Origin: Eledone cirrhosa
Taxonomy: Eukaryota
DNA length: 64,000 nt
Direction of reading: 5' to 3'
NCBI GenBank assembly: GCA_964016885.1
Contig: OZ024759.1
Coordinates: forward strand, 18,848,001-18,912,000
Both the position numbers and the translations under genes were made by a program. Each line of letters begins with the position of its first letter. Position 1 is the first letter of the stretch. Below the pieces are notes generated by a model that was not told the DNA's origin, did not search any database, and was given only the letters and a program-made list of their open reading frames with translations. Below, piece by piece: positions 336-39,988 of the stretch.

Positions 336-695
336 AGAAGTTATATTTAATTTGTTGGGATACAACAAGCAAATATTTTTATAACTGATATAAAGCACTC
401 AACAAATTTTTGGAGTAAAAATACAATATATTAACAAATGGAAACTATATTTATAAAACCATATTTATTTCATTATACATATTTCAAGGACACCAAAGCA
501 AATTACGGGACTATCCGGGAGCTTCCAACAGACATGGTCGCATTCTTTAAGGGTATGTCAATATTCGTTTATAAAACTGATCTATATTATATTTTATCTG
601 ATGAAAGCGCACCATAATTTGCTTTGGTGTCCTTGAAATATGTATAAAGAAATAAATATGGTTTTATAAATATAGTTTCCATTTGTTAATATATA
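335..695 (+). mobile_element. TA-embedded Penelope-like/retrozyme-like terminal fragment (family A) with inverted partial copy
   Basis: 79-bp inverted arms at 427-505 and 615-693; HHR motif inside; second copy of the sense part at ~22241-22382; flanked by (TA)n. Confidence 0.65.
590..654 (+). ncRNA. Type I hammerhead ribozyme motif (family A)
   Basis: TATTTTAT-CTGATGA(598-604)-AAGCGCACCA..TGGTGTCCTT-GAAA(635-638)-TATGTA-TA-AAGAAATA; one mismatch in stem I. Confidence 0.7.
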
Positions 696-726: not shown

Positions 727-794
727 ATTATTCCATTTACCAGTGGTTTCTTAAAAGCAAAAGATTTTGTTTTCAATCCTCAGAATGAAAAAAT
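727..794 (-). ncRNA. Type I hammerhead ribozyme motif (family B, minus-strand copy)
   Basis: Reverse complement of 861-928 with one stem II substitution; core intact. Confidence 0.75.
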
Positions 795-860: not shown

Positions 861-928
861 ATTTTTTCATTCTGAGGATTGAAAGCAAAATCTTTTGCTT
901 TTAAGAAACCACTGGTAAATGGAATAAT
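861..928 (+). ncRNA. Type I hammerhead ribozyme motif (family B)
   Basis: TTTCATT-CTGAGGA(872-878)-TTGAAAGCAAAA/TC/TTTTGCTTTTAA-GAAA(905-908)-CCA C TGG-TA^AATGGAA; all three stems pair. Confidence 0.85.
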
Positions 929-12748: not shown

Positions 12749-12883
12749 AAGTAGTTCCACAACAGTTAATTCACCATATCGAGAACAAATGTATCACCTT
12801 ATGCGCATCTTCAGCTCGGTCTGAAGATCCGGATAAGGTGAAACACTTGATCTCGATATGGTGAATTAACTGCTGTGGAACTA

Positions 12884-22440: not shown

Positions 22441-22886
22441 GTTTTCACGGTATTTTTGACTAAAGGAATTGTAGCCTGATAACGGGGTTTAGAACCCTCA
22501 GATAAATGGAAAAAGATGTGTATTGACGTACATGGGAGTCGAACCCACATCTTTGGTTATCGCGACCATTGTGCTACCATTACACCAACACATTACCCAT
22601 CCCCTTCTATTCAAATTAGAAGCTACATTCTTAGCGAGTTTAAATGGCAAGTAAGTATGTTTTGAAACAGTGAGCAGGTTTGAAATTAGAAAATAGAATA
22701 GCTTTCACGGTATTTTTGACTAAAGGAATTTTAGCCTGATAAAGGGGTTTAGAACCCTCAGATAAATGGAAAAAGATGTGTATTGACGTACATTTTATCA
22801 GGCTAAAATTCCTTTAGTCAAAAATGCCGTGAAAGCTATTCTATTTTCTAATTTCAAACCTGCTCACTGTTTCAAAACATACTTAA
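22441..22886 (-). mobile_element. TA-embedded element with 260-bp tandem unit, terminal inversion and internal tRNA-like cassette
   Basis: Direct repeat 22443-22533 / 22703-22793; 22793-22885 is the reverse complement of ~22652-22743. Confidence 0.75.
22524..22596 (-). pseudogene. tRNA-derived sequence (A and B boxes; weak acceptor stem)
   Basis: TGGTGTAATGGTAGCAC..TGGT..ACCA..GTGGGTTCGACTCCCAT: D arm and T arm pair. Confidence 0.65.
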
Positions 22887-32151: not shown

Positions 32152-32292
32152 ATTGACCTGAGTCCTGGAGTGTTACCTTTATTTGTACTCAGGGATTTGT
32201 AGGGACAGACGGTGTATCTAAGGGCATTTCTTAACATCTGGAGCCCATTTCCTCTCCAAGTCTGAATACAGCAGATTTCTTCCAGAGAAGGG

Positions 32293-33326
32293 TATAGAGA
32301 GGGTAGGAATAGACGTAAGAAAGGTATAGAGAGGGTAGGAATAGACGTAAGAAAGGTATAGAGAGGGTAGGAATAGACGTAAGAAAGATATAGAGAGGGT
32401 AGGAATAGACGTAAGAAAGATATAGAGAGGGTAGGAATAGACGTAAGAAAGGTATAGAGAGGGTAGGAATAGACGTAAGAAAGGTATAGAGAGGGTAGGA
32501 ATAGACGTAAGAAAGATATAGAGAGGGTAGGAATAGACGTAAGAAAGATATAGAGAGGGTAGGAATAGACGTAAGAAAGATATAGAGAGGGTAGGAATAG
32601 ACGTAAGAAAGGTATAGAGAGGGTAGGAATAGACGTAAGAAAGGTATAGAGAGGGTAGGAATAGACGTAAGAAAGATATAGAGAGGGTAGGAATAGACGT
32701 AAGAAAGATATAGAGAGGGTAGGAATAGACGTAAGAAAGGTATAGAGAGGGTAGGAATAGACGTAAGAAAGATATAGAGAGGGTAGGAATAGACGTAAGA
32801 AGGGTATAGAGAGGGTAGGAATAGACGTAAGAAAGATATAGAGAGGGTAGGAATAGACGTAAGAAAGATATAGAGAGGGTAGGAATAGACGTAAGAAAGA
32901 TATAGAGAGGGTAGGAATAGACGTAAGAAAGATATAGAGAGGGTAGGAATAGACGTAAGAAAGGTATAGAGAGGGTAGGAATAGACGTAAGAAAGGTATA
33001 GAGAGGGTAGGAATAGACGTAAGAAAGATATAGAGAGGGTAGGAATAGACGTAAGAAAGATATAGAGAGGGTAGGAATAGACGTAAGAAAGGTATAGAGA
33101 GGGTAGGAATAGACGTAAGAAAGATATAGAGAGGGTAGGAATAGACGTAAGAAAGGTATAGAGAGGGTAGGAATAGACGTAAGAAAGATATAGAGAGGGT
33201 AGGAATAGACGTAAGAAAGGTATAGAGAGGGTAGGAATAGACGTAAGAAAGATATAGAGAGGGTAGGAATAGACGTAAGAAAGATATAGAGAGGGTAGGA
33301 ATAGACGTAAGAAAGATATAGAGAGG
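32293..33326. repeat. 32-bp minisatellite, 32 copies plus a partial
   Basis: Unit TATAGAGAGGGTAGGAATAGACGTAAGAAAG(G/A). Confidence 0.97.
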
Positions 33327-34505: not shown

Positions 34506-34540
34506 TATGTACATATACATATGCATATATATATATATAT

Positions 34541-34808
34541 TGATTAGGCGATACCCGCTGATGAAACCGCATAAGCTGATTGTGCATTGTTGCATAATAT
34601 ATGCAGACAGATGGTGCAGTGCACCTTACTGCTGCATTAGTGCGGCAGAAACTCGAGTCCGGGAACCTTATAGGCACCCGTTTTACGTGTGTTGTGTTGA
34701 GGCAAATAACGATGTGTATACTCTGGTAATGTATCTTACATTGTCCACTGAGTGCGCTGAGATACAACCGGTACTGGCATCGATAAATATGCTGGGTCCG
34801 TCAACCCT

Positions 34809-34812
<4 letters not shown>
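34541..34812 (+). mobile_element. TA-embedded HHR element (family D)
   Basis: Bounded by (TA)n; 3' half recurs at 10373-10518. Confidence 0.75.
34546..34670 (+). ncRNA. Type I hammerhead ribozyme motif with GUC site and extended stem II
   Basis: CCCG-CTGATGA(34558-34564)-AA CCGCA..TGCGG CA-GAAA(34648-34651)-CTCGAG-TC^CGGG. Confidence 0.82.
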
Positions 34813-34853
<41 letters not shown>

Positions 34854-34860
34854 CATATGC

Positions 34861-34947
<87 letters not shown>

Positions 34948-39374: not shown

Positions 39375-39429
39375 CATTTTATTATACATATTTCGGATGT
39401 ACAACAGTACGTCCTCATCAGACAAAATA
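39375..39429 (-). ncRNA. Type I hammerhead ribozyme motif (family E)
   Basis: TATTTTGT-CTGATGA-GGACGTAC TGTT GTACATCC-GAAA-TATGTA-TA^ATAAAATG on the minus strand. Confidence 0.88.

Positions 39430-39514: not shown

Positions 39515-39988
<474 letters not shown>

Follow-up and report, generated by a model that had tools for sequence, protein, structure and literature searches.

A hammerhead motif with a long, branched stem II in the terminal repeat of a non-coding PLE-type element of Eledone cirrhosa

Can a hammerhead motif whose second stem encloses a structured insertion of 67 nt act as a ribozyme, and what might such an arm do? The question is raised by positions 34541-34812 of a 64,000-nt stretch of the Eledone cirrhosa genome (contig OZ024759.1), hereafter the window; features are on the + strand unless stated otherwise. 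A preliminary description had placed a GUC hammerhead here, cut after 34659, and both core and site are present as described, the cut itself being predicted. The sequence has what defines a type I hammerhead: a CUGANGA plus GAAA core, an NUH site and three stems. CTGATGA occupies 34558-34564 and GAAAC 34648-34652. The first core half, from C3 to A9 plus the A at 10.1 (34558-34565), is identical in the majority sequences of three subfamilies; the second (34647-34659) comprises an A at 11.1, G12-A14, the palindromic stem III ACTCGAGT (34651-34658) and C17. Stem I, proposed as CCCG/CGGG, was confirmed at 34554-34557 with 34660-34663, its 5′ strand being paired in 89.8% of the cells across 26 copies. 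A search of the region against Rfam returned no hammerhead, either at the gathering score or at E<=10.

The multi-hairpin stem II domain of the preliminary description also stood up to analysis. It covers 81 nt (34566-34646), in which a 7-bp helix (34566-34572 with 34640-34646) closes a three-way junction and encloses a 67-nt domain of two hairpins (34573-34639). Hairpin a (34579-34598) has 8 bp and a 4-nt loop and is paired in 98% of cells, with an A-U/G-U exchange at one pair in 13/13 rows. Hairpin b (34601-34637) has about 15 bp with bulges and a G-C/A-U swap at 34610/34629; its tip has been rewritten between subfamilies with pairing retained. A further swap, A-U/G-C, is found in the closing helix at 34569/34643. 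The region folds at a z-score of -2.79, equally good folds being obtained from 2 of 200 shuffles.

Two other subfamilies were gathered by their upstream sequence alone, which avoids choosing copies by their core. This search yielded 29 and 29 loci, of which 28 and 26 cover the motif and 18 and 20 have an intact core. Among the three subfamily majorities the core is identical at 19/19 positions, the arm is 78-89% alike and the upstream sequence 62-79%. The 7-bp helix and both hairpins occur in all three, a fold that random mutants carrying the same number of changes keep in 5-26 cases per 1000, so that the conservation of the insertion among copies, which the preliminary description had put forward as a check, is observed. 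In the 26-copy alignment 94.3% of cells pair, with a covariation score that 1 of 500 shuffles attains, with the qualification that 23 of the 26 copies were picked by the core pattern and that related rows inflate both tests. Two-sided changes affect only three pairs of this alignment, no more than in shuffles (294/500). The cleavage triplet is GUA in all 28 copies of the oldest subfamily and GUC in the others. As judged by these comparisons, the three subfamilies keep the same stem II fold through compensatory changes, and the motif is a real hammerhead variant under selection, carried by a non-coding PLE-type element. The putative protein-binding or regulatory role of the domain suggested earlier is a reasonable possibility.

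The element around the motif belongs to a family, here called family A, of which the host genome (3.0 Gb, rich in microsatellites) holds many copies. The 272-nt query gave 2674 first-look candidates, 40 of the scored ones matching at 96-98% with the query itself excluded, and the exact core-plus-stem pattern occurs at 575 places genome-wide, against none in the control. Segment 34541-34812 is 97% identical to its best copies, with which it has a common 3′ end and from which it differs in its 5′ end; it represents the 5′-truncated, pLTR-like 3′ end of the young subfamily. The unit reconstructed from copies is about 840 nt long, non-coding and PLE-like in anatomy. Its 3′ end is fixed 153 nt past the predicted cut, copy comparison placing the rest of the pLTR, with a TTA/TA tail, at 34681-34812, and copies are variably truncated at the 5′ end. 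Position 34541, which had been taken for the start of the element some 5 nt before the ribozyme, is such a truncation point: other copies extend up to about 556 nt further 5′. An AT run stands at the fixed 3′ end in 51 of 54 loci and a TA run on the 5′ side in 40 of them. Two segments are present at 22 of the 54, consisting in 21 cases of a partial copy before the unit and in one of an internal deletion; in four fetched loci two hammerheads lie about 840 nt apart. Variable truncation, a fixed 3′ end and partial tandems make up the structure reported for PLE insertions in the consulted part of PMC8557442. By its anatomy, 34541-34812 is thus the pLTR end of a non-coding PLE-type element. The window copy itself, single, truncated and with a weakened stem II, is likely inert.

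A genome-wide search for exact unit junctions found 42, with one adjacent pair among them; there are therefore no arrays, and full dimers of family A were likewise not found by this search. No ORF remnant was found in the unit, whose longest M-ORF has 93 aa, and tblastn with three Hydra proteins gave no match at E<1. The 5′ part carries an intron-like signal (GTAAGT, a TACTAAT-like branch and a pyrimidine-AG). A 25-bp target-duplication-like repeat flanks the window copy (34510-34534 and, after a (TA)n run, 34846-34870), repeats of this kind being no more frequent at family A loci (3/54) than in the control (9/300). Pieces of families A and B are present in two contig runs of unknown kind, and a second organism (X4) has a few pieces 80-95% alike over family A. 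Just 5′ of the position corresponding to 34541, full copies contain the palindrome TCGATCGA within a block of 33 nt on which the three subfamily majorities agree completely. The 5′ truncations cluster at positions 521-532 of the unit, immediately 3′ of a GC hairpin.

Several features bear on whether a single copy could cut. The AA/CA opening of stem II in the preliminary description exists in the window but not in the family: G is found at 34566 in 57 of 60 full copies (two duplicate loci dropped), so the only family-wide mismatch is A34565.A34647, at 10.1/11.1, and the second one is a private G>A change of this copy. Positions 10.1 and 11.1 are unpaired throughout family A, as A.A or A.C, with C at 11.1 in the older subfamilies (22/28 and 24/26 copies); mismatches here are known from natural hammerhead motifs, according to the section of PMC3088659 used. 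The proposed extension of stem I by AGG/CCT did not hold, since CTA or TAT replaces CCT in the older subfamilies. What is conserved instead is a competing hairpin (34660-34680), in which the 3′ strand of stem I pairs with CCCG at 34677-34680 and CCT (34666-34668) pairs better with the downstream AGG (34672-34674); it is retained in all three majorities with differing inner sequence. Stem III has 2 bp and forms no hairpin alone, and the duplex of two copies through the palindrome is predicted at -10.7 kcal/mol. In 25/25 copies the active fold of the monomer is less stable than the minimum, by 2.1-16.9 kcal/mol (9.1 in the window copy). Because stem III fails alone, the competing hairpin is available and the active fold lies above the minimum, the family A monomer is predicted to be off.

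Long arms are by no means confined to family A. Cores with 47-108 nt between their halves were matched at 1577, 6088 and 2918 places (about 10,600, in sets that can overlap), against 102, 224 and 207 (533 in total) for reversed-pattern controls. Since the long patterns required an A at 10.1, the fact that this base is constant is no finding; A.A and U.U flanks occur on short arms too. Among 117 long matches at loci L061-L150, which include several per family and some due to chance, stem III is palindromic in 84 (seven different palindromes) and N17 is not G in 116. The arms span 57-102 nt between the core halves and vary among families in sequence and shape. Those of 15 family representatives fold at z-scores of -1.1 to -4.9, 12 as single rods and three with two hairpins, and the family A arm gave no alignment above z 1.8 with the arms of 12 other families. 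Thousands of related elements in this genome are long-armed, which points to a function of the arm, likely that of helping the element's protein or a second copy to switch cutting on.

In 10 of the 15 representatives, among them coding long-arm families (L107, L092, L132 and L093), AATAAA is found 1-16 nt after the predicted cut, and cleavage would therefore remove the poly(A) signal; family A lacks it. The near-identical coding loci L092 and L094 (family C) have only one stem I pair beside the core.

In several families, ORFs of 737-784 aa sit between two long-arm hammerheads. Coding carriers B, C and F, with spacers of 85-92 nt, have RWK and DKT motifs, a CxCX5C linker, CxxC, CxH, a C-terminal GIY-YIG and (TA)n targets; they were assigned to Hydra by comparing motifs with the descriptions in section 11 and in excerpts of File S1 of PMC8557442. 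In an RT tree of 12 rows, midpoint-rooted and without published proteins, families B, C, F, D and H group on a single branch (98/95), with the short-arm family outside it. Families E, D2, X and M, in which the ORF is linked to the hammerhead by adjacency, were left out of this clade assignment, and the endonuclease tree carries long-branch warnings. By motif and tree, then, the five protein-coding long-arm families are Hydra-clade PLEs on one RT branch. Pfam gave no match above the cut-off for two coding carriers, and a metagenome scan for coding relatives found none. Between family A and the protein-coding families no common sequence was detected in a non-exhaustive search (fetched loci plus patterns), so that the partner of family A is inferred. 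A search for an autonomous partner with the TCGA loop gave five matches, all of them decayed family A. A Naiad origin of the carriers was considered and rejected, their endonuclease being C-terminal with Hydra motifs. A very abundant young Hydra family (L171, G000:C1:91472000-91480500) has 150 scored copies at 95-97% and many open frames above 770 aa; the 1250 nt after its stop contain no CUGANGA match, and a long stem ending in GAAAC stands there instead.

Known systems resemble family A in part. Like the hammerheads of Hydra-clade PLEs, as presented in the parts of PMC8557442 to which we refer, it has a type I core near the 3′ end, a small palindromic stem III and (TA)n targets; 10.1/11.1 are frequently non-paired there as well (U.U), and the protein motifs of our coding carriers match. 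Unlike them, family A encodes no protein, and while loop 2 measures 3-10 nt in the 26 Hydra rows of File S2 of Craig et al. 2021 (PMC8557442; Hydra-1_Obim included), 57-102 nt separate the core halves here, in a branched fold in family A. With animal non-LTR retrozymes, or non-autonomous PLE derivatives (Cervera & de la Pena 2020, PMC7229834; Li et al. 2026, 10.64898/2026.07.22.740005), family A shares a non-coding unit of low GC, a single type I hammerhead in each head-to-tail unit and a unit length within the reported 51-972 bp; it differs in being dispersed, 5′-truncated and without arrays, and in its long arm and intron-like 5′ part. An enlarged stem II region is listed for the spike-moss elements PLE-X1_sMoe and PLE-X1_sTam, with loops of 29-35 nt and a region of about 53 nt in sMoe (Craig File S2, as far as it is used here). 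These differ in being plant elements, endonuclease-less, marked non-canonical and unbranched as listed, and there is no sign of common origin. The anole Poseidon element PAc (Frangieh et al. 2024, PMC11167929, selected sections) likewise carries its hammerhead in the pLTR, 5′ of a 3′ end that is fixed and internal; it belongs to the Poseidon clade, and protein-assisted cleavage has been demonstrated there, whereas here it is inferred. The portions of PMC6155905 and PMC10085705 available to us contain no long-arm PLE motif, and in the literature searched we found no stem II of 60-100 nt described for animal PLEs, although subscription papers or supplements could hold one.

On balance we favour, at slightly better than even probability, the reading that family A is a non-coding PLE parasite with a hammerhead in its terminal repeat, off as a single copy and cutting via a dimer or a Hydra-type protein, with the long arm as a handle. 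The cut after 34659 would likely need one of two events. The first is the pairing of two copies by way of their palindromic stem III; comparable motifs of PLEs and of the axolotl cut better as dimers (PMC4209133, PMC7229834, in the passages cited). The second is binding of the protein of a Hydra-type element, the long arm likely serving as a binding or folding handle. The anole motif cuts only with its own protein, copying there starts internally on uncut RNA, and insertion in vitro does not need cleavage (PMC11167929, same sections). Family A would be mobilised in trans by a Hydra RT/endonuclease, head-to-tail precursors would be cut into units of about 840 nt, possibly circles, and reverse transcription, with uncut or re-joined RNA as its template, would begin 153 nt beyond the cut at the fixed site. 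Against this reading, of 21 upstream copies 8 continue across the cut and none starts within 5 nt of it; the arms of the families are mostly unalignable and mostly rods (12/15), as expected under a loose "any closed helix" rule; and short-arm Hydra motifs are commoner (17411 matches, control 3151), while the abundant L171 family has no core match after its ORF.

A more daring version, which we regard as doubtful, holds that a Hydra sub-lineage and its non-coding parasites evolved a large structured stem II module that is bound by the element's own RT/endonuclease and flips a locked RNA into a cutting dimer. If true, it would mean a natural protein-gated hammerhead that occupies some ten thousand places in a single genome and escapes standard ribozyme searches. 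Young coding long-arm elements, short-arm relatives and a non-coding parasite coexist in this genome, which makes arm swaps or deletions with the matching protein directly testable. As this class shows, a large part of the hammerheads in such genomes goes undetected by Rfam and by descriptors with a size limit.

The strongest competitor to the dimer- or protein-switched hammerhead, possible if on the unlikely side, treats it as an ordinary PLE hammerhead whose arm was lengthened once in the Hydra sub-lineage and is kept folded only to spare the core. Arm length, sequence and shape do vary among families, families with short arms do well alongside them, and copies L096 and L097 have deletions inside the arm. 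Yet no family on the supported RT branch has shortened its arm, though branch lengths reach about 0.5 changes/site; in family A both hairpins persist where the upstream sequence has diverged by as much as 38%; and the family A arm is more conserved than that sequence. Quite improbable, in our opinion, is a fold that never cuts and whose only role is in recognition by the RT (or which acts as promoter DNA), the catalytic core being kept for its shape. It would account for the uncut site 153 nt inside the 3′ end of every insertion, for 5′ ends without a pile-up at the cut and for the poor activity predicted from A.A at 10.1/11.1 and the competing hairpin, and the sections of PMC11167929 cited report that anole RNA reads gave no cut ends. 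However, the catalytic positions, the N17 not-G rule and the palindromic stem III are all kept across unrelated families; these are requirements of dimer cleavage, and they count against it. Very improbable is the canonical loop-loop hammerhead of the preliminary description, a fast monomer with its extended stem I docked on the arm as a sensor: a 3-4-bp pairing of 34547-34550 with the junction strand can be drawn (84% of cells paired), but this pseudoknot has no covariation support (104-139/500 shuffles), AGG/CCT is unconserved, and the 2-bp stem III fails to fold alone in a monomer whose active form lies well above the minimum.

Other hammerhead-like sequences occur in the window. An inverted pair of medium-arm cores at 746-783 (-) and 872-909 (+), with palindromic stem III, has the form of a PLE-type inverted insertion, and a short-arm, Hydra-type core at 12821-12852 (+) has an inverted truncated copy directly 5′. 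Two similar hammerhead-like cores at 598-638 (+) and 39391-39421 (-) end in GAAATATGTA instead of GAAAC and are perhaps another family or decayed copies. At about 39715-39745 (+), another element end includes a minimal motif of PLE type in which the first half of the core is altered. A tRNA-like match at 22524-22594 (-) scores 36 bits with a mismatched acceptor stem and is possibly a SINE head, and a 32-bp tandem array of 32.5 copies with 98% matches extends over 32286-33326.
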